Shown one piece after another: positions 6,019-50,609 of a stretch of DNA of 64,000 bases. Every line of letters begins with the position of its first letter. Position 1 is the first letter of the stretch. The notes beneath the pieces were generated by a model that saw nothing but the letters and a program-made list of their open reading frames with translations, was not told the DNA's origin and ran no database searches. The position numbers and the translations under genes were made by a program. Source of the DNA: a virus (Duplodnaviria; Caudoviricetes); IMG/VR virus record IMGVR_UViG_2713896750_000003, positions 1 to 64,000 of that record. One strand, written 5' to 3'.

Positions 6019-6516
6019 CTACTCTTTTTCGGAGCGAACGTAACGAACAACCGTAAATGAGGCGTCGTTGTTTTCATCTTTATCTTGAGCAAAAAGCGTT
6101 TCCTTCTTGATGAAACCGTCAAGGAAGTCAGCCGGCATGCGAGTAAGAACACCTTCTTTGACGGTGTCATGAATATGAGTGACGATAAGCTCATCGATAA
6201 CGCCCATTTCAAGGAAGAGGCGATAGATTTCAGAACCGCCGATAACGTCAAAGTCGTTACCAAAGAAGCCAAATAATTGCTTTGTTCCGTCCACTACGTA
6301 AGCGTTCTCGATAGCATGTGGGTAACGCATCATGATGACGTTCTTGCGGTCTGGAAGCGGTTGACCGATAGAATCATAAGTCTTGCGACCCATGACTACC
6401 GTCCGCCCTTTAGTCAAAGCCTTGAAGTGCTTTAAATCATCACTTAAGTGGAAAGGAAGTTCGCCATTTTTAGCGATAACATGATCTTCGGTAAGAGCGA
6501 CAACTAATCGAATCAT
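6019..6516 (-). CDS. folA: Dihydrofolate reductase
   Basis: DLKHFK, VVMGRKTYDSIG, PLPDRKN, VIGGSEIY. Confidence 0.95.
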   Translation of the reverse strand: MIRLVVALTEDHVIAKNGELPFHLSDDLKHFKALTKGRTVVMGRKTYDSIGQPLPDRKNVIMMRYPHAIENAYVVDGTKQLFGFFGNDFDVIGGSEIYRLFLEMGVIDELIVTHIHDTVKEGVLTRMPADFLDGFIKKETLFAQDKDENNDASFTVVRYVRSEKE

Positions 6517-7355
6517 ACTGCTACTTTTCCTGTTAGTTTCGGGTGAGATGAATAACCAACGATTTCAACGTCGTCGTAGGTGAAGTCGTCGATTTCCTTG
6601 ATGTTCGGGTTAAGACGCACAGAAGCTTGTGATTTTGGCTTACGTTTAATCTGCGTCTGGATTTGTTTAAGATGGTTTTCATAGATGTGGACGTTGCCGC
6701 CAACATGAATCAATTCCACCGCCTCATGATTTGTGACTTGAGCGAGCATGTGAGCGAGAATGGAGTAAAATTCAAGATTGAACGGCAGCCCCAAGAAAAC
6801 ATCGACGCTACGTTGATACATTTGCAGACGCAGTTTGCGCTTACCGCCTTCCTCAGAAGCCGGCTCAGAATCAACCTGAAACATCATGTGGCAAGGTGGA
6901 AGCTGCATCTCATCTAAATCACCCACATTCCAAGCATTGACTAGAATGCGACGATCTGTCGGGGCATGGCGTAGTTTGTCGACCATGTTGGCAAGCTGAT
7001 CGATAACGATTTTCTTGACTCCCATACCCATTGGCTTAAATGTCGTCCATTTACGCCATTGAGCGCCATATACGGGACCAAGCTCCCCGTCTTCGCGAGC
7101 CCACTCATTCCAAATACGAACGCCATTTTCTTGCAGGTATTTAACGTTGGTGTCACCGGCAATCATCCATAAAAGCTCGTGAATGATGGATTTGTGGTGA
7201 ATCTCTTTTGTTGTAATAGCTGCAATTTTCCCACCTGACAGATCGAATCGCATTTGAGTGCCAAAGACCTGAGTGGTAGTAACACCGGTACGCTCGTGAG
7301 TCTCCACGTAGCCGTTGTCCAAGACATGCTGAGCGAGATCTAGGTATTGCTTCAT
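6513..7355 (-). CDS. thyA: Thymidylate synthase
   Basis: LGPVYGAQWR, LPPCH, YQRSVDVFLGLPFN, HIYENH. Confidence 0.97.
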   Translation of the reverse strand: MKQYLDLAQHVLDNGYVETHERTGVTTTQVFGTQMRFDLSGGKIAAITTKEIHHKSIIHELLWMIAGDTNVKYLQENGVRIWNEWAREDGELGPVYGAQWRKWTTFKPMGMGVKKIVIDQLANMVDKLRHAPTDRRILVNAWNVGDLDEMQLPPCHMMFQVDSEPASEEGGKRKLRLQMYQRSVDVFLGLPFNLEFYSILAHMLAQVTNHEAVELIHVGGNVHIYENHLKQIQTQIKRKPKSQASVRLNPNIKEIDDFTYDDVEIVGYSSHPKLTGKVAV

Positions 7356-28281: not shown

Positions 28282-28366
28282 TCATATAGATCAGTCTTAA
28301 TCGCTATATTTGTTAGCTTGCGTACAATAAGTAAGTGAGGAAGGGGCTTCACTAAGCCCCTATGGT

Positions 28367-29545
28367 TTAGCTCAATGCCTCTGCCACCTCGCAGAAAATC
28401 TCGTCCAGAATGTTCTGAACTTCAGGCTTTACGTATGTCATTTGAGGGTTCGGAGCAAAATAGATAGAGCAATCTCGCTTCACGTCATAAACAACCTGCC
28501 CCGCCAGTGTCTCCCATCCACCTTTCACGTCAGGACATAATGCTCTAATTGCTGCGCCTCCCGCGCACACGACGACGCTAGGCTTAAGCAAGTCCATTTC
28601 TCGATAGAGATAGTCAATCCAACGGTTTATTTCGTCACTGGTGAGCTGTTTATCTTTCTTTTTGGCTTTGACTACGCCAGTGTAGTAGCCCTCTGACTTT
28701 TTAAGCCCCGCAGCCTCAAGTGCAGATTTTGTGTACCCAAATGACTTTCCATCTGCGAATTTGCCTGCCTGATCTTCTGAGAAAGAAGCGCAATCGGTGA
28801 TCATCATGAATTTCGGCCTCGCCCCGAAATTAGGTATCACGGGGTTTACATCAGTGGTAAAGCCTTCTTCATCTAGTCCCTCCGCCTTTATTTCTTCACA
28901 GAGCTTGGCTAGTTCTTCCTTCACTGACTTCACATCGAGGCCACGACTTGCCTTTACGTTATTCAGCATAAGGTTAGGAATGAGCTCTTTCTGGTCTTTC
29001 AGCCTGTCTGGGTGTCTAGGGTCGATTGCGTCCGGATCGATGTCGCAGAAGGCACCGACCGCATCTAGGTTTTCTTGCGCTCGCTTGTTGCAATACCGCT
29101 TCTCGATAGATTCAAGAAAGTGATTTTTGCTTTTGAATCGACCACCTACTCTCTCACGAGCGGACAGTATCATCTGAGTGCCTTTTTCTGACACTTGCTT
29201 CACTCGATTCAAAGGAGCATAAAGAATGTGCTGCTCACGCTTTTCGTCGTAACCAATCTCAAAGGTATCAGTTGAATTATTGATACAAGGAGGAACAACA
29301 AATACGCCATTCTCTGCGGCGTCTTTAACGATAGGGGTGAGAGCGTCCTCTTTGGCTATGGATAGACTCGCAGCAAAAAACTCTGCGGGGTAATAACATT
29401 TAAGATACTGGCAAATATACGAAATCAATGTGTACGAGACGGAGTGGCTCTTGTTAAACTGATAACCTCCATTTTCTTCGATTTTTTGCCAGAGTAGAGC
29501 TGCTTCTACTTCACTCATGCCGGACTCTCGATTGATAATTTTCAT
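28367..29545 (-). CDS. dnaE: DNA polymerase III alpha, C-terminal fragment, fused to a degenerate UDG-like domain
   Basis: YQFNKSHS.SY, YLK.YYPAEF, PPCINNS, HhH region; ATG at 29545 overlaps the HNH stop (ATGA). Confidence 0.9.
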   Translation of the reverse strand: MKIINRESGMSEVEAALLWQKIEENGGYQFNKSHSVSYTLISYICQYLKCYYPAEFFAASLSIAKEDALTPIVKDAAENGVFVVPPCINNSTDTFEIGYDEKREQHILYAPLNRVKQVSEKGTQMILSARERVGGRFKSKNHFLESIEKRYCNKRAQENLDAVGAFCDIDPDAIDPRHPDRLKDQKELIPNLMLNNVKASRGLDVKSVKEELAKLCEEIKAEGLDEEGFTTDVNPVIPNFGARPKFMMITDCASFSEDQAGKFADGKSFGYTKSALEAAGLKKSEGYYTGVVKAKKKDKQLTSDEINRWIDYLYREMDLLKPSVVVCAGGAAIRALCPDVKGGWETLAGQVVYDVKRDCSIYFAPNPQMTYVKPEVQNILDEIFCEVAEALS

Positions 29546-30078
29546 AGCCATCCCCAATGTTTACCTGTTTTGATGTTGCTTACCTGCGACTGAGAAATGC
29601 CGAATTTGTCAGCGATGCTCTTTTGCATAACACCATCACTCAGTAGTGCTTTTATTTCTCTCGCTTGTTCTGGCGTGATGATCGACCCAGCCTTACCGTG
29701 TCTATACGATGTTCCATGCATTAGCCTGTCCGACTGATTCTCTTTTTCCGTTCCGTACATTAGATTGCCTGGTCGATTATTCAGCTTGTCGCCATCCAAA
29801 TGACGAGTAACTTGACCTTTCGGTCGTTCACCGATAAATGTTAAAGCAACCAACTCATGTACTCGTTTGTACCCACCTTTCTTTCCAAGTGCCGTCCCTA
29901 AGTAACCCGTTTGCTTATCAAGCGACAACGCTAACACTCGTCCCTTGTATTTTTTCTCTACCGTAGCTCCCCACCGACCTTTGCAGGTGACGATCATATC
30001 GAGACTGCGAACCCTACCAAGATCTGAGACCTGATAACCTTCATGTCCGGGTATGTCTCTCCAATTCTCTACGCTCAT
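29542..30078 (-). mobile_element. NUMOD4-HNH homing endonuclease inserted in dnaE
   Basis: WRDIPGHEGYQVSDLGRVRS (NUMOD4), VHELVALTF, RHLDGDKLNNRPGNL (HNH), C-terminal HTH. Confidence 0.92.
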
Positions 30079-32399
30079 AAATCTAACTCCACGCCTTTAT
30101 CGATTGCTTCATCTACTGTCAGATAAGACGTTACATCATCTTTGACGGGGAATCGGGCATCCGAACGCACTACCTTCGTACTGCCATCTGATAACTGAAC
30201 TGTGAGGGTTTCGGCTTGACAGCCTTTGATAAACTTCTCACCCAAAGAAGCCATCAATTTTTTGTCTTTCTTACCAATTGCTTTACGAACTTTGTCAGAC
30301 TCAGCCATAGTGAATCCAGCCAAGTCTCGCGCGATCTGCATCGTTTGCTCTTGGTAAATAAGGATGCCGCGTGTCTCGCGCAATGCATCTTCCATTTTAG
30401 GGTGCTCATAGTGTGGCTTTACAATGCCCTGCTTAATCTTGACATACTCCTCTGTCATGCCTGATTGCAAAGGGCCCGGCCGATATAGCGCGGTCGCAGC
30501 ATACACGTCCTCAAACGTAAGCTTTCTGCCGCCCTCTCCAAGCTCTTTAAGGAGAGCTCTCATTCCCGAGCTGGTAAACTGAAAGACGCCAACTGTTTTG
30601 CCTTCAGCAAACATTTGCAGCACCTTCTCGTCGTCAAGAGGAATGCTGAGTAGGTCGAGTTCTTTGCCATGCCTCGCTTTTATTTTGTCTTTGGCTATTT
30701 GAATGATGTCTAAGGTAGACAAGCCAAGAATATCTAACTTGATAAGCCCAAAATCTTCAACGACGCGCTTATCCCAGTTAACTGACTGCTCTCCCTTACG
30801 CCGCTCTACAACCGCTCGCTCTACCAAAGGCTCCCCAGCTACTACGACACCCGCAGCGTGACGCCCCAACGAGCGCATTGCGCCATCAAGCTGTTGACTG
30901 ATCTCAAATTCTTTCGGGTGAAGTTCAGCATAACGTTTGATTTCCGGAAGCTCTTTGGCCTCATCAAGAGTCATGCCCAACTCAATGCCACGCGTACACT
31001 TCAAATCGTCATTCGAAACATCGAAAATACGCCCAACGTCTCGAATCGAAGACGCTGTACCCAACATGGTGTAGTTGTTAATACCAGCCACCTTGTCATG
31101 TCCGTATTTATCAAACATCCAGTCGATAACCTCTTGGCGTCGAGAGCTCATGAAGTCGGTATCGATGTCGGGATAGTCAAGACGGTCTGGGTTTAGAAAT
31201 CGCTCAAAGATAAGACCAAAACGAAGCGGATCAACGTCAGTGATGCCAATGAGGTAAGCTACTAGAGAGCCAGCTGCCGAACCGCGTGCAGGCCCAACAA
31301 GAATGTCATTTTCTTTGGACCACATGATCACATCACGTACCAGCAAGAAGTATCGGTCGAACCCCATGTCCTTCAAGACCTTAAGTTCGTATTGTAATCG
31401 CTGCTTGTATTCAGGAAGAACGTCATCGCTTGGCTTATAACCAAACACTGGCCTTTCGAGTCGATGTTTCCATCCCTCTTTGCAGAGCTTGATCAGCTCG
31501 GCAAACTCATCGTCTGCCATTTTAGGTAGACACATAGCCTGCTTCGTCCATTCATAGGTACAGTCATTAAAAATGTCCTGACTGCTATCAATAAAAGAAC
31601 CAAGATGTGACAAGTTATGTTCCATTGTCGCTACGTGCTTTTCCATCTCACTAGGAGGCAAAATAGAAAAATCACGTATGAACGGAATATCTCTGAGCCG
31701 ACTCTTAGCTTTACCGTGCCCGATGATATAACTCATCACATCACGCGCCTCGTCAGCCCCCTCTTTGTAAAGAGCTGGTCTGGAGAATATCACTTTGGAA
31801 TCGCTCTCAATCGCGTTCTGAGCTGCGATAGAGTTTATCTTGTCAAAGTATGCGCTTTTAGCTGGGATCAGCTCTACAAAGCGATTACGCGCTTCTACGT
31901 GCTTAACCAGCGCTTGATAGATTTTCTTGTGATTAGAATGTTGAAAAAGCGAAAAGAAGTCTCCGGTCGACAAAATCAATCCATCTGATTTCAACGCCAC
32001 TACCAACTCTTTGATCCCAACGCGAGGTGCGTAATAAAAGTAATCCTCTGAGTTGGCGACAGTAAGCAACCGAAAAAGCGCTTTCAGACCCTTTTCGTTT
32101 TTGACGTACAGCTTTGCCTCCCAGAATTCGTTTTTCTTTGAGACCTCACCTGAGCGCTTTGATGGCGGTCGATAGGTCGGATCGTCATAAACCCTTATAT
32201 TTACACCTATCACAGCTTTAATGGGTTCTTCTAACTTTCGAGCCTTGTCAAACAACTTAGTCATGCCTGATATCGTTGCATCATCCAACATCGCAACCTG
32301 TTTATAGCCATATTGATTTGCTGCATCTACGATATCCTCAACGGAAAGAATAGAGCGCCCCATACTAAAGGCGCTGCGAGTATTAATCAGTGAGTACAT
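30075..32399 (-). CDS. dnaE: DNA polymerase III alpha, N-terminal fragment
   Basis: Degenerate PHP domain, GPARGSAAGS, FERFLNPDR..PDIDTDF, GRHAAG, KLDILGL, LYRPGP, YQEQ. Confidence 0.95.
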   Translation of the reverse strand: MYSLINTRSAFSMGRSILSVEDIVDAANQYGYKQVAMLDDATISGMTKLFDKARKLEEPIKAVIGVNIRVYDDPTYRPPSKRSGEVSKKNEFWEAKLYVKNEKGLKALFRLLTVANSEDYFYYAPRVGIKELVVALKSDGLILSTGDFFSLFQHSNHKKIYQALVKHVEARNRFVELIPAKSAYFDKINSIAAQNAIESDSKVIFSRPALYKEGADEARDVMSYIIGHGKAKSRLRDIPFIRDFSILPPSEMEKHVATMEHNLSHLGSFIDSSQDIFNDCTYEWTKQAMCLPKMADDEFAELIKLCKEGWKHRLERPVFGYKPSDDVLPEYKQRLQYELKVLKDMGFDRYFLLVRDVIMWSKENDILVGPARGSAAGSLVAYLIGITDVDPLRFGLIFERFLNPDRLDYPDIDTDFMSSRRQEVIDWMFDKYGHDKVAGINNYTMLGTASSIRDVGRIFDVSNDDLKCTRGIELGMTLDEAKELPEIKRYAELHPKEFEISQQLDGAMRSLGRHAAGVVVAGEPLVERAVVERRKGEQSVNWDKRVVEDFGLIKLDILGLSTLDIIQIAKDKIKARHGKELDLLSIPLDDEKVLQMFAEGKTVGVFQFTSSGMRALLKELGEGGRKLTFEDVYAATALYRPGPLQSGMTEEYVKIKQGIVKPHYEHPKMEDALRETRGILIYQEQTMQIARDLAGFTMAESDKVRKAIGKKDKKLMASLGEKFIKGCQAETLTVQLSDGSTKVVRSDARFPVKDDVTSYLTVDEAIDKGVELDL

Positions 32400-32973
32400 A
32401 GTCGTCCCCAATTTTTTCAATAACGCCAATTGCAATAAGAGCCTGAGCTGTCCAGCTCGCACTGTTGCTGACGGCCGTCTCTTTGCTGTTTGGCTTTTCT
32501 TCTCGAATGATATTTTTCAACTCTGAGTGAGTGATTTTTCCATGTCTGCTTAAGTGCTCCTGAACCGAATAAAGGTACTCAGGTTTTAAGTCTTTCAGAT
32601 GGTTTTCGCCCCTCTTGATGTCCGACTTTATATCGATGCCTCGTCTCAGAATTGCCTTTGCGATTTTTCCGGCTCGCACGCTGCAATTTGACAGATCTGT
32701 ATCAATATCGAACTCGATAGGCAGATAGCTTGCGAAGCGTAACTTGCTTGCTCCTGAAGCTATCGCTTTCGTATGAACGCCGTTTTTGTCCAGAAATGAC
32801 TGAGTGGCGCGCATAATGTCCGAGACGTCCAATTCTTGATTGATTTCTTCAAGCCGCGTCATGACTTTCTGTGCGCAATCGACGCCGTATTCGCAGCGCT
32901 TGCAGTGCGTAGATGTAGGAAAGAATGACGCAGCTTGCCCCAAGCAGTGTGGGGCAAGTCTTGTATCCATCAT
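32383..32973 (-). CDS. Cys-cluster protein with putative C-terminal winged helix
   Basis: CLG...CKRC...C N-terminus; HGKITHSEL...IGVIEK C-terminus. Confidence 0.55.
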   Translation of the reverse strand: MMDTRLAPHCLGQAASFFPTSTHCKRCEYGVDCAQKVMTRLEEINQELDVSDIMRATQSFLDKNGVHTKAIASGASKLRFASYLPIEFDIDTDLSNCSVRAGKIAKAILRRGIDIKSDIKRGENHLKDLKPEYLYSVQEHLSRHGKITHSELKNIIREEKPNSKETAVSNSASWTAQALIAIGVIEKIGDDYVLTD

Positions 32974-48201: not shown

Positions 48202-49362
48202 CTATTCAGTGTTTCTAGTTGGTATCAAGCTGTCGGTGAAAAGACGAAGTGTGTTTCTGGCCTGTGGAGTGATGGCATTAAACCTTCTTTCTTTCGCCTG
48301 AAAGTCGCCCCAAATCCGACCGTCAAATGGCTTAGAGAACTCATCAGTAATGCGGTCTGTCAACTTCCTGAAAGATTGGACGAGAACTTCCGACCAGGAG
48401 CTAGTGTCCGTATTGAGCATCTTTTTTAGTATCTTTTCGCGATAGACGACCGGCACATTGCACACTTGGTACTCCACAGGAAAAGAAACGTCGCCATGGT
48501 TTAGCCCGTCTAACCTTACCAAGCTGTCATTCAAAAACTGGTAAAACTCGGGCATGCTCGCGATGGTCAAGTTGGTGAGCGTCTGATTAACTCTAACTTC
48601 GGCATGTGGTATTTCAGAAGCAAGACGATTGTAATTTGCCACAATTCGCTTCGTATTACTTAACTCCCTTTGATGCTCATTCACTTCAGGCGTCCCATCT
48701 AAAGACAGCATATATTCCAAATTAGGGAACGCTCTTAGAATCTCAATAACGTCCTTTCCTCGACTCTTGAGACTCATCCCATTACTCAAGACTGAAATTC
48801 TGATCTTGTCTTTATGTGGGTACAACACGTCTAGAATATCCAGAAAAGAGTCGTCGTTCATTGGCTCCCCACCATGAAACACATAATGAGTCACCGTAGA
48901 GACAACGCTCTTGACGTAATCGATGGTAGCCGCTCTATTATCAATTCTCTTTGCTCCATCGCCAAACATCTTCCCATAACTGGTGCTGCAGCCGGACGAG
49001 CACATCCGGCATGCGAGCTGGCAAGTATTGTGAGGGCTAAGGTGAAGATATTTGGGATTATTCGGCATGCGCCCATCAGGAAGGCAATCATCGGGCTTAA
49101 AGTCAGGAAATTGAGCCATATAGTGGCCGATCAACTCAATTCCATTTTGTTTAAGTTGACCAGATACACACCGAATGCATCGCTTCGGCACCTCACCCTT
49201 TAACCATTTTGCTCTAGCTTCCATCCTATCTAGACTGTTCCAACCCTCATCGAGACTCTGACCATCTGTACCTTGGTCGTTACAGCACATTTTGACCGAG
49301 CCAAAAGCCCATTGAACGTTGGAGACGAACGGAGCTGGGCATATAAAGTCCACTTTCTTCAT
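48202..49362 (-). CDS. Radical SAM enzyme with N-terminal twitch/SPASM-like domain
   Basis: CPAPF...MCC...WNS...CIRC; CQLACRMC; HGGEP; ATGA overlap with upstream gene. Confidence 0.9.
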   Translation of the reverse strand: MKKVDFICPAPFVSNVQWAFGSVKMCCNDQGTDGQSLDEGWNSLDRMEARAKWLKGEVPKRCIRCVSGQLKQNGIELIGHYMAQFPDFKPDDCLPDGRMPNNPKYLHLSPHNTCQLACRMCSSGCSTSYGKMFGDGAKRIDNRAATIDYVKSVVSTVTHYVFHGGEPMNDDSFLDILDVLYPHKDKIRISVLSNGMSLKSRGKDVIEILRAFPNLEYMLSLDGTPEVNEHQRELSNTKRIVANYNRLASEIPHAEVRVNQTLTNLTIASMPEFYQFLNDSLVRLDGLNHGDVSFPVEYQVCNVPVVYREKILKKMLNTDTSSWSEVLVQSFRKLTDRITDEFSKPFDGRIWGDFQAKERRFNAITPQARNTLRLFTDSLIPTRNTE

Positions 49363-50609
49363 AATGTATCCACGCTGCAAGGTATGATGTTGTTAACGTG
49401 AGGAGCAAACATAGGGAAGACCTTCAGCATGTCTCTCCCCTCATGCTCATCTATAGTTCGATCAAGATACATTGCCTTGTTCCACTCAGAAGGTGAGAAC
49501 TTGCCCGCGAAGATCGCTCTCATAGCGGTATCTCTTAGCTCCATATAGTGCTCATTATCTATTTTTACGTTGCGAAGCTTTTTCAAAACCTCCCTCTTTA
49601 CATCATCTGGCAGCTGAAATGGCTGATAGTACTTGGGGTTATTGACGACGTTTAAGCTAGGCCAAATGCCTCTTGGGTGTAAATTTTCGTAGGCCCATTC
49701 TAAGTACTCGGCGAAATAAACGGCGGAGTAGTTGCTTAGCGTCGTATGAACCCCCACATAATGCCGCTCAGGAAGCTTACTCAATGCCTCATCAATGATT
49801 TTCATCGTTCTCTTTGTTCTACCTCGAAGCCGGATATAGTCATTGGCCTCTGGAATAGAATCGATCGAAAAAACGGCATGAACATCCTTAAAATCCTTAA
49901 GAACGTCCCAAACATTCCTTCCGTCTGTCATGGTTGAAAACGAACCATTGGAAAGAAAGTTGATTTTGCATGTGTCTTTGATCGGCATTAGGGCATCTAT
50001 AATGGCTGGAAAGTTTTTAGCCTGAATCGGGTCACCGCCGTGCAGCACCACTTCTCGCAACGTCTCATAGTTGCTTGTAATGATGCGCAAGTCTTCTTCG
50101 TGATCGGTCTCCGCAACAAACGTCTTTCGATCAAAAGGAGGGAGAATACCAGGATCATTTGTTAGCCCGATTCGCTCAGTAATGCTTAATTTGGTCGAGG
50201 AGATCTGTGGCGTACACATCCTACATGCCATGTTGCATTTGTTGCTTACACCAAGCGCTAGTTGGGTCAAAGGCACTCCACTCATTGAGCCATCTTCGTT
50301 GTACAGATGCTTGTACTTCAAGAAGTTCTCAACAAAGAAGGGTCTGTCCTCCAACAGGTAAAACTTAGAGTGCGACGTTGGCGAGTTTAGACATGTCTTA
50401 CAACCCTCAGGTAACGCATCGTAATTATGCTCCCATAATGCCTTTCTCGTTTGCTTGGCTACATCACCATTCCAGTATTCGTCAAACGGCATTTTTCTTG
50501 TTTCGCCCCACATCTCACAACATGGCGAAGTTCTCTGCGAGATTTTAAAAAGGCCAATAAATGGAGCAAGACACATAGGCAATTTCTCTTTAGGCTCAGA
50601 CAATTTCAT
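49359..50609 (-). CDS. Radical SAM enzyme with N-terminal twitch/SPASM-like domain
   Basis: CLAPF...PCC...WNG...CKTC; CNMACRMC; HGGDP. Confidence 0.9.
   Translation of the reverse strand: MKLSEPKEKLPMCLAPFIGLFKISQRTSPCCEMWGETRKMPFDEYWNGDVAKQTRKALWEHNYDALPEGCKTCLNSPTSHSKFYLLEDRPFFVENFLKYKHLYNEDGSMSGVPLTQLALGVSNKCNMACRMCTPQISSTKLSITERIGLTNDPGILPPFDRKTFVAETDHEEDLRIITSNYETLREVVLHGGDPIQAKNFPAIIDALMPIKDTCKINFLSNGSFSTMTDGRNVWDVLKDFKDVHAVFSIDSIPEANDYIRLRGRTKRTMKIIDEALSKLPERHYVGVHTTLSNYSAVYFAEYLEWAYENLHPRGIWPSLNVVNNPKYYQPFQLPDDVKREVLKKLRNVKIDNEHYMELRDTAMRAIFAGKFSPSEWNKAMYLDRTIDEHEGRDMLKVFPMFAPHVNNIIPCSVDTL

Follow-up and report, generated by a model that had tools for sequence, protein, structure and literature searches.

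A polymerase gene divided by an endonuclease ORF

The window analysed here is a stretch of 64,000 nucleotides (nt) from a virus of the Caudoviricetes (positions 1 to 64,000 of IMG/VR record IMGVR_UViG_2713896750_000003). Within it the dnaE DNA polymerase gene is carried as two open reading frames (ORFs), DnaE-N and DnaE-C, which flank a third ORF for a putative homing endonuclease (Table 1). The three ORFs lie in three different frames and meet in ATGA stop/start overlaps at both junctions, between DnaE-N, whose TGA stop occupies 30075-30077, and the endonuclease, and between the endonuclease and DnaE-C, where the ATG of the latter stands at 29545. DnaE-N ends in an additional segment, termed here the tail, and DnaE-C opens with a short one, the head; the origin and role of these two segments are the subject of this work.

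Table 1. Features of the divided dnaE locus (positions in the window)
Feature	Position	Strand	Description
DnaE-N ORF	30075..32462	-	PHP and polymerase core, the greater part of the fingers, and the tail at its end
Upstream co-converted dnaE flank, 103 nt	30222..30324	-	Divergence from an otherwise identical insert-less allele
Tail (48 aa, CQAE...VELDL)	30078..30221	-	C-terminal end of DnaE-N; DnaE-extra part 30078-30209 (44 aa)
Free-standing homing endonuclease (predicted), 178 aa	29542..30078	-	NUMOD4, HNH_3 and a weak helix-turn-helix (HTH)
DnaE-C	28367..29545	-	Remaining fingers, helix-hairpin-helix (HhH), fused family-4 uracil-DNA-glycosylase-like domain
Head MKIINRES	29522..29545	-	N-terminus of DnaE-C; extra residues MKIINRE 29525-29545
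Downstream co-converted dnaE flank, 63 nt	29459..29521	-	P0007 identity drop and X16 contig break

The DnaE domains are shared between the halves, the N half matching Pfam families PF02811, PF07733 and PF17657 and the C half PF14579; the NCBIfam model for DnaE, TIGR00594, is matched at 537 bits (cut-off 434). On the 1146 positions of PRK05673 DnaE-N covers 9-731 and DnaE-C 726-886, and from these ranges about 44 residues of the tail and 7 of the head are extra to DnaE. A preliminary description, made from the sequence alone, had counted all 48 of the last residues of DnaE-N as extra; the coordinates and sequence it gave are correct, while the NCBIfam alignment reduces the extra part to about 44. 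The listed GTG start at 32462 gives DnaE-N 21 residues that have no counterpart in its relatives. The true start is likely the ATG at 32399, 63 nt downstream, because identity to an unsplit homologue, P0007, begins there (residue 22).

The ORF between the halves is placed by its NUMOD4 (51.2 bits, Pfam cut-off 23.4) and HNH_3 (43.0 bits, cut-off 24.8) domains among the HNH_3/NUMOD4 homing endonucleases, with cleavage activity predicted, and the gene occurs once in the 103-kb genome.

The tail and head are related to split inteins

Using residues 640-795 of DnaE-N as a query we recovered many DnaE-N proteins of about 757-792 residues that end in tails of 47-51 residues similar to that of the window. 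The tail consensus reads G-A-x-A-G-x-V-E-V-E-L-E-D-G-x(4)-V-H-R-x-x-K-F ... T-V-E-E-A, and among 27 tails, which are 22-55% identical, a Gly is invariant and an Asp and a Thr are nearly so. These 27 tails made up profile A1; a second profile, A3, is independent of A1 and holds 15 tails, from the window and 14 loci. Against all PDB sequences A1 gave 45 matches at E ≤ 10. Cyanobacterial DnaE split inteins took every one of the best 14 places (E 4.1e-6 to 1.2e-3), and HMMER aligned profile positions 11-47 on intein residues ~60-98, where block B lies. P0065, a candidate discussed below, is among the 27 rows, so the A1 search is not fully independent of that protein; the A3 search is. With A3 the best nine PDB matches were again DnaE inteins (E 1.6e-5 to 8.6e-5), and inteins filled 14 of the first 21 rows, the other seven being designed repeat proteins without a scored stretch. 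Across the PDB profile searches the tail aligned on intein residues ~54-98.

Searched against 1.84 billion (1.84e9) protein representatives, A3 gave 109 matches at E ≤ 1e-3. Most of those aligned over a single stretch were the ends of split DnaE-N proteins, and the matches include ten full N-terminal split-intein (IntN) fragments (P0208, P0231, P0232, P0209, P0202, P0189, P0225, P0226, P0210 and P0227). All ten carry the block B motif T-x-x-H and are inserted beside the FNKSH motif of other DnaE genes. A Pfam scan of 24 A3 matches covered eight of them (not P0210 and P0227), and five of the eight matched Intein_splicing or Hint. Matches over several stretches (aRib and other repeat proteins; P0131, P0148, P0160) cover only profile positions ~5-27 and were discarded as noise. 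Since the family profiles match inteins, the resemblance of the tail to IntN goes beyond chance at the level of the family. The preliminary description had likened the tail to the second half of split-intein N-fragments, and this view is borne out, with DnaE inteins at E 4e-6 to 1e-3 in the tail-profile searches and IntN fragments at E ≤ 1e-3.

We also considered whether the Cys that leads the tail could correspond to the first residue of an intein, but it stands at an ordinary G[AC] position of DnaE that unsplit relatives share. A word-indexed search for the module in longer proteins returned 22 matches, all of them pieces of DnaE, although the method is weak as evidence of absence. One of the IntN-bearing proteins, P0231 (1526 residues), is a DnaE-N with a full LAGLIDADG intein and a full split N-intein at its FNK|C site. 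At the position that corresponds to the break in the window it has a short continuous extra segment (…VEYETLEELQDGSVKKVTKSG…), possibly a copy of the module in a more advanced state of decay.

Predicted structures place the module in the intein fold

In L075, an uninterrupted DnaE of the SSU5 type, tail and head form a natural continuous segment of 58 residues. The AlphaFold model of this segment (predicted local distance difference test score, pLDDT, 78.9) has the order strand-strand-helix-strand, and the best 12 rows of a Foldseek search with it were inteins (E 0.03-0.3). When the 811 chains of the Foldseek list were compared with the model by VIA, the best 25 chains were inteins, led by 4kl5_A, the Npu DnaE intein (Z 6.2, root-mean-square deviation (rmsd) 3.1 Å, 58/58 residues aligned). 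Model residues 1-58 lie on residues 50-114 of this chain, which comprise IntN 50-102 and residues 1-12 of the C-terminal fragment (IntC). A VIA search of 48,161 chains, independent of Foldseek, had inteins as its best 10 chains and as 14 of its best 15. For inteins with an endonuclease domain (1dq3, 2cw8 and Mtu RecA) the aligned range spans that domain. The tail of the window was also modelled by itself (pLDDT 83.1), and its first 10 fold matches were inteins, the best being the Npu N-intein 4lx3_A (Z 5.0, rmsd 2.6 Å, 47/49 residues aligned, on residues 50-96).

The models also agree with the earlier suggestion that the head resembles the first strand of IntC, as it sits in the place of that strand. 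A lack of Hint similarity by profile or structure was to have refuted the preliminary description; the comparison found similarity on both counts. The tail and head are fragments homologous to the Hint fold, given the significant profile similarity and the matching topology over the retained part. The models are predictions with modest Z scores, and the case for kinship is one of agreement between two profiles and three fold searches. A weak match to residues ~476-525 of 8yo3_C, the central domain of phage T4 topoisomerase II, recurred in all three VIA searches (Z 2.0-2.8), a score too low to mean anything alone.

The chemistry of splicing is missing

The part of the intein that is retained is its interior. 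The first ~50 residues of IntN are missing, the models aligning only from intein residue ~50 on, and with them block A and its Cys/Ser/Thr nucleophile; the window has T as its first extra residue, and its relatives have N, F, Q, E, Y, W, D and others. The T-x-x-H of block B is not present either. In the HMMER alignment the family motif V-H-r-a-a-K-F lies on intein A-T-K-D-H-K-F, so that T-x-x-H gives way to H-R-x-x in the family and to R-S-D-A in the window: Thr is replaced by H (by R in the window) and His by a small or variable residue (by A in the window). On the other side of the break retention stops near IntC residue 12, leaving out the final two thirds of this fragment. Blocks F and G, the His-Asn pair, the terminal Asn and the +1 nucleophile are all absent; heads of 7-12 residues run directly into the G(M/L)xE of DnaE, and the residue that precedes this G is D, N, Q or P in 10/11 relatives and S in the window. 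The preliminary description had judged splicing unlikely from the lack of the block B His and of the terminal Asn with its nucleophile, and the alignments extend this to block A and to blocks F and G.

With all of the splicing chemistry missing, no peptide bond would be formed and the polymerase would stay as two chains. We consider it highly likely that the tail and head are an intein remnant by origin and do not splice. A group I intron was looked for and rejected, an Rfam scan of 28300-32500 having given no matches at E ≤ 1.

The segments arrive with the endonuclease in a probable mobile cassette

Comparison with P0007, which is unsplit and carries no insert, locates the point at which the window departs from its relatives. 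DnaE-N matches P0007 with 100% identity over residues 22-696, and between there and the tail the identity drops to 80% and 40%; in DnaE-C it is 40% for residues 6-30 and 96-100% from that point on. The junction sequence of P0007 is shared with a relative, P0009, which marks the divergent patch in the window as foreign. Metagenome X16 contains contigs identical to the cassette together with insert-less contigs whose match to the window stops exactly at 29458 and 30325. Read by eye, the loose end at 30325 encodes the P0007-type (D)LCGYTMGES and that at 29458 the DQIAEFAGYG of the insert-less allele. From the contig breaks and the P0007 comparison the replaced patch is therefore 29459-30324, made up of the cassette with 103 and 63 nt of co-converted flank. 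At the level of sequence, such a patch with co-converted flanks is the signature of homing.

The wider distribution of the segment also points to movement. DnaE is unsplit and lacks it at 57/80 loci and in 82/113 DnaE rows. We placed the 113 cores in a FastTree phylogeny (an unrooted tree from a fast method, using the 450 residues upstream of the junction and excluding the tail), in which the 26 split rows are scattered and cannot be explained by fewer than 16 state changes, of which starred branches force 14. It is very likely that 29459-30324 is a mobile cassette, comprising tail, endonuclease and head, in the dnaE gene of a ~103 kb SSU5-like phage, and the near-identical flanking gene suggests that the lineage of the window acquired it recently.

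The module thus belongs to the mobile cassette and not to the DnaE site, and it arrives together with the endonuclease. This overturns one part of the preliminary description, in which an intein-derived module already in place had made the site tolerant of splitting: the nearest unsplit relatives hold no trace of it. The related check, whether uninterrupted relatives carry the segment as a continuous insert, gives a positive answer for the SSU5 group only, where a Met stands at the would-be start of the C half, and a negative one for the nearest unsplit relatives.

The split persists while endonucleases come and go

The tail and head are both present in 11/11 split loci from viral contigs, while the slot between the halves varies. 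It holds a NUMOD4-HNH_3 ORF in 5/11, a C-terminal HNH_3 with NUMOD3 or HTH in 3/11 and no endonuclease in 3/11. In these last three the halves are separated by 15 nt (L031), by a 284-nt gap (L050) or by debris (L023). The L023 slot contains a 61-residue ORF (6397-6579) without a Pfam match, whose sequence (…SAWNSGLTKESD…) is reminiscent of the NUMOD3-type endonucleases found in L038 and L045 and is probably endonuclease debris. In a close relative of the window, from sequencing run X20, 907 other letters replace the endonuclease and head; the three tail differences listed between the two, read by eye, are all synonymous third positions. Because endonuclease-free split loci exist and slot contents vary, the split state is seen to outlive the endonuclease, and endonucleases turn over within it.

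Both polymerase ORFs are intact in 10/11 split loci, at 41-53% identity to the window and with C halves of 389-421 residues; in the remaining one, L069, the C half is intact and the N half runs off the contig end. Split alleles were also matched in sequencing runs from 14 studies. The nine loci of the SSU5 group have tail and head fused within one uninterrupted DnaE. These and P0006 look like re-fusions, because a Met stands at the would-be start of the C half.

Two further proteins bear on how the cassette might spread. P0128 (104 residues) has a GIY-YIG-like N-terminus fused to the last ~55 residues of a DnaE-N, tail included, which hints that some dnaE alleles have another endonuclease inserted upstream of the first, giving a three-piece gene or a chimeric ORF. 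P0065 (918 residues) has no insert at the usual site and a 46-residue look-alike of the tail after the HhH. We set this candidate aside, as A3 gives it just 6.1 bits and it has no intein match alone; if real, it would indicate that the cassette can move to a new site.

A proposed role in assembling the polymerase

The net charges of tail and head are opposite in 12/12 pairs, of which 11 have an acidic tail and a basic head and one has both charges inverted. In split inteins the anionic part of IntN is its C-terminal half. According to a review passage, split-intein assembly begins by electrostatic capture between a disordered anionic region of IntN and a cationic IntC. Opposite charges on the two strands, of the same polarity as in the 11 pairs, are also described for natural split inteins in the available part of Dassa 2009 (PMC2677866). 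From the opposite charges and the conservation of both segments, we give a role of the tail and head in assembling DnaE-N with DnaE-C a somewhat better than even chance.

On this basis we propose the following mechanism. The endonuclease would cut insert-less dnaE alleles, and repair would copy the whole cassette into the cut allele. The three ORFs would then be translated in coupled fashion as separate chains; most C halves have a Shine-Dalgarno-like motif ahead of their start. The tail, being acidic, and the head, being basic, would pair in the manner of the initial, electrostatic stage of split-intein assembly and form a half-Hint beta module that docks DnaE-C onto DnaE-N, and it is through this docking that an insertion in an essential gene would be tolerated. 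The two segments correspond to the pieces of a split intein nearest its endonuclease (IntN ~50-102 and IntC ~1-12). They may have originated in one illegitimate transposition of an endonuclease from a complete split intein, taking only its nearest flanks, or alternatively in two separate deletions.

Our preferred explanation of the locus as a whole is a recently acquired cassette whose splicing-dead split-intein pieces join the polymerase halves non-covalently, and we put its probability at about 0.7. A broader proposal is more tentative, and we doubt that it holds in full: the cassette as a portable 'split-and-zip' element, in which an endonuclease left a split intein with only the two adjoining strands and, thanks to these half-Hint tags, broke an essential gene at a new site with neither RNA nor protein splicing, in which the tails of Aeh1 NrdA, T4 gp39/gp60 and the P0065 second site are relics of the same kind, and in which 45 + 11 residues make a natural minimal heterodimerising tag.

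Several observations weigh against the preferred explanation. The tail of the window alone finds no Hint family in Pfam or NCBIfam at E ≤ 10, nor any PDB match by phmmer at the same threshold. The homology depends on profiles of the family and on AlphaFold models, whose predictions may be swayed by intein structures already solved, and the structural scores are modest: the L075 Foldseek E-values are all above 1e-3 (≥ 0.03), and Z does not exceed 6.2, where values under 8 can reflect a common arrangement. The DnaE tree is unrooted with respect to gain or loss, and a gain in the lineage of the window rests on the P0007/P0009 junction. The re-fused P0006 has lost half of its tail, and the head of the window is 3 residues shorter than the MKIKSxxxLxD of the family, so the module may be partly dispensable. 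Lastly, in Aeh1 NrdA, the only precedent to have been studied, the halves bound each other without needing their tails, according to the available text of the study considered below.

Alternative explanations

It is possible, though improbable, that the remnant is real and merely vestigial, the halves joining through the native fingers-domain interface with the tail and head as hitch-hiking debris. DnaE-N and DnaE-C are pieces of one domain and would share a large native interface, which fits such a view, as do the tail-independent heterodimer reported in the accessible part of the NrdA study, the halved P0006 tail after re-fusion and the shortened head of the window. Other observations speak against it. 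The pattern, with its invariant Gly and nearly invariant Asp and Thr, is conserved over tails that have diverged to 22-55% identity, and no split locus among the eleven has lost either segment. Both are kept in 3/3 endonuclease-free split loci and in the nine continuous SSU5-type loci, the charges are opposite in every pair, including the double inversion, and all three listed tail differences between the window and X20 are synonymous.

We regard it as very improbable that the segment is a lineage-specific decoration of the DnaE fingers whose likeness to inteins arose by chance or convergence. The lack of a Pfam or NCBIfam Hint match for a single tail and the modest Z scores would suit a decoration, and SSU5-type polymerases do have what looks like an ordinary continuous insert. 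Yet two independent profiles rank only DnaE inteins at the top, genuine IntN fragments were matched at E ≤ 1e-3 among 1.84e9 proteins, and the three fold searches were led exclusively by inteins. The break also falls exactly where inteins carry their endonuclease, the domain spanned by the aligned ranges in 1dq3, 2cw8 and Mtu RecA, and the nearest DnaE relatives lack the segment.

Production of a single chain, by unusual protein trans-splicing, a group I intron or ribosomal bypass, is scarcely credible. The gene is essential, its ATGA overlaps leave little regulatory room, and phages provide precedents for all three mechanisms, T4 gene 60 among them. Further precedents appear in the available text of Dassa 2009 (PMC2677866). 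Nevertheless, tail and head amount to just ~51-57 residues without an N-terminal Cys/Ser, a block B His, block F/G or a terminal Asn, and D, N, Q or P stands before the GM in 10/11 relatives. The empty Rfam scan of the locus speaks against an intron, the tail is conserved as protein, and a bypass would have to span 534 nt. Equally hard to credit is a broken polymerase gene in a phage that depends on the host replicase: the insertion is very recent (its flanks are 100% identical) and decay might not yet show, but 10/11 split loci have intact N and C ORFs at 41-53% identity, three loci retained the split after losing the endonuclease, and split alleles are matched in runs from 14 studies.

Genomic setting

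The virus record is a genome of 103,169 bases, 94% complete and syntenic with Salmonella phage SSU5. DNA-level coverage in the phage collection is just 4-9%; a near-match search of the plasmid collection returned nothing. The locus lies in a phage replication module with genes for a helicase, primase, ligase, ParA, SSB, recombinase, SbcCD, NrdD and ThyA, followed by tail fibres. Between this module and the tail-fibre genes are two adjacent ORFs with radical-SAM domains (392 and 416 residues, phrog_14086; window 48202-50609). The uracil-DNA-glycosylase-like (UDG) domain at the C-terminus of the polymerase (window 28367-29200; Pfam UDG 31.1 bits, TIGR00758 40.4 bits and under its cut-off) is a fusion common to most of the DnaE relatives found. 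Contig X3, from an RNA library, crosses the whole locus and was considered as evidence of transcription, but it is a genome-length 103-kb contig and was dropped.

Comparison with known systems

The best sequence and structure matches are to the cyanobacterial DnaE split inteins (Npu and Ssp; 4kl5, 4lx3, 1zd7), which reside in the same host protein; the tail corresponds to their residues ~50-98 and the head to IntC 1-12. The genes at the present locus are adjacent, whereas those of the cyanobacterial DnaE split inteins are dispersed. The integration point differs as well, lying ~27 codons upstream of the FNKSH motif, beside which the full IntN fragments are inserted.

In its layout the locus resembles the fractured genes of Dassa 2009 (PMC2677866), as presented in the available part of that paper. 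There too the N-part of a gene with an intein N-piece is followed by a free-standing endonuclease and by an intein C-piece with the C-part of the gene. Two adjacent, co-oriented gene parts with an endonuclease gene between them are found in the window and in its relatives alike. Further common features are an endonuclease ORF that overlaps the downstream start, the existence of endonuclease-free loci, phage replication genes as hosts and opposite charges on the two interface strands. DnaE is among the hosts of fractured genes, yet at three other integration points. The inteins described there are complete: their N parts measure 88-105 residues, none of the six motifs or five catalytic residues is lacking, and splicing is expected of them. 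In contrast, only ~44-46 + 7-11 residues are left at the present locus, every catalytic position is gone and no complete split intein is found. The endonucleases differ as well, being GIY-YIG or Vsr-like in fractured genes and HNH_3 here.

The second parallel is Aeh1 NrdA, which is split into NrdA-a and NrdA-b by mobE and whose tails are needed for activity (Crona et al. 2011, PMC3045599, from the portion available). In both systems an HNH endonuclease splits an essential, replication-related gene and there is no splicing; the tails flank the endonuclease, are oppositely charged, arrive with the endonuclease and are absent from unsplit homologues. In the NrdA system, unlike here, the charges are reversed, with a basic C-terminal tail, and the available text shows no tie to inteins by sequence or fold. 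The function of the NrdA tails was measured, whereas that of the DnaE tail is predicted; the latter would be expected to act as the NrdA tails do. The present family is large and its mobility is documented, which sets it apart from NrdA. The same portion of that paper speculated, without evidence, that the tails might be a degenerate split intein, proposed for mobE an illegitimate transposition of the endonuclease with its nearest flanks, and named T4 gp39/gp60 as another endonuclease-split protein with tails. We found no description of truncated intein tails of this type in the full-text literature, a search that did not extend to subscription journals.

Two ways are known to live with an endonuclease in an essential gene: splicing it out, as in introns, inteins and fractured genes, and non-covalent reassembly through unexplained tails, as in Aeh1 NrdA. 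The present locus links the two: both sequence and fold lead from its tails back to the inner half of a split intein, stripped of its chemistry, and the element appears to have been caught in the act of homing. If the tags do drive assembly, the locus would show how a selfish endonuclease stays harmless after its intein has decayed, and would provide protein engineers with a compact pair of natural association tags. It would also supply a testable origin for the tails found on further split phage proteins, as was suggested in 2011 without being settled. The intein origin of the module is well supported, and the layout is that of a fractured gene without a working intein.

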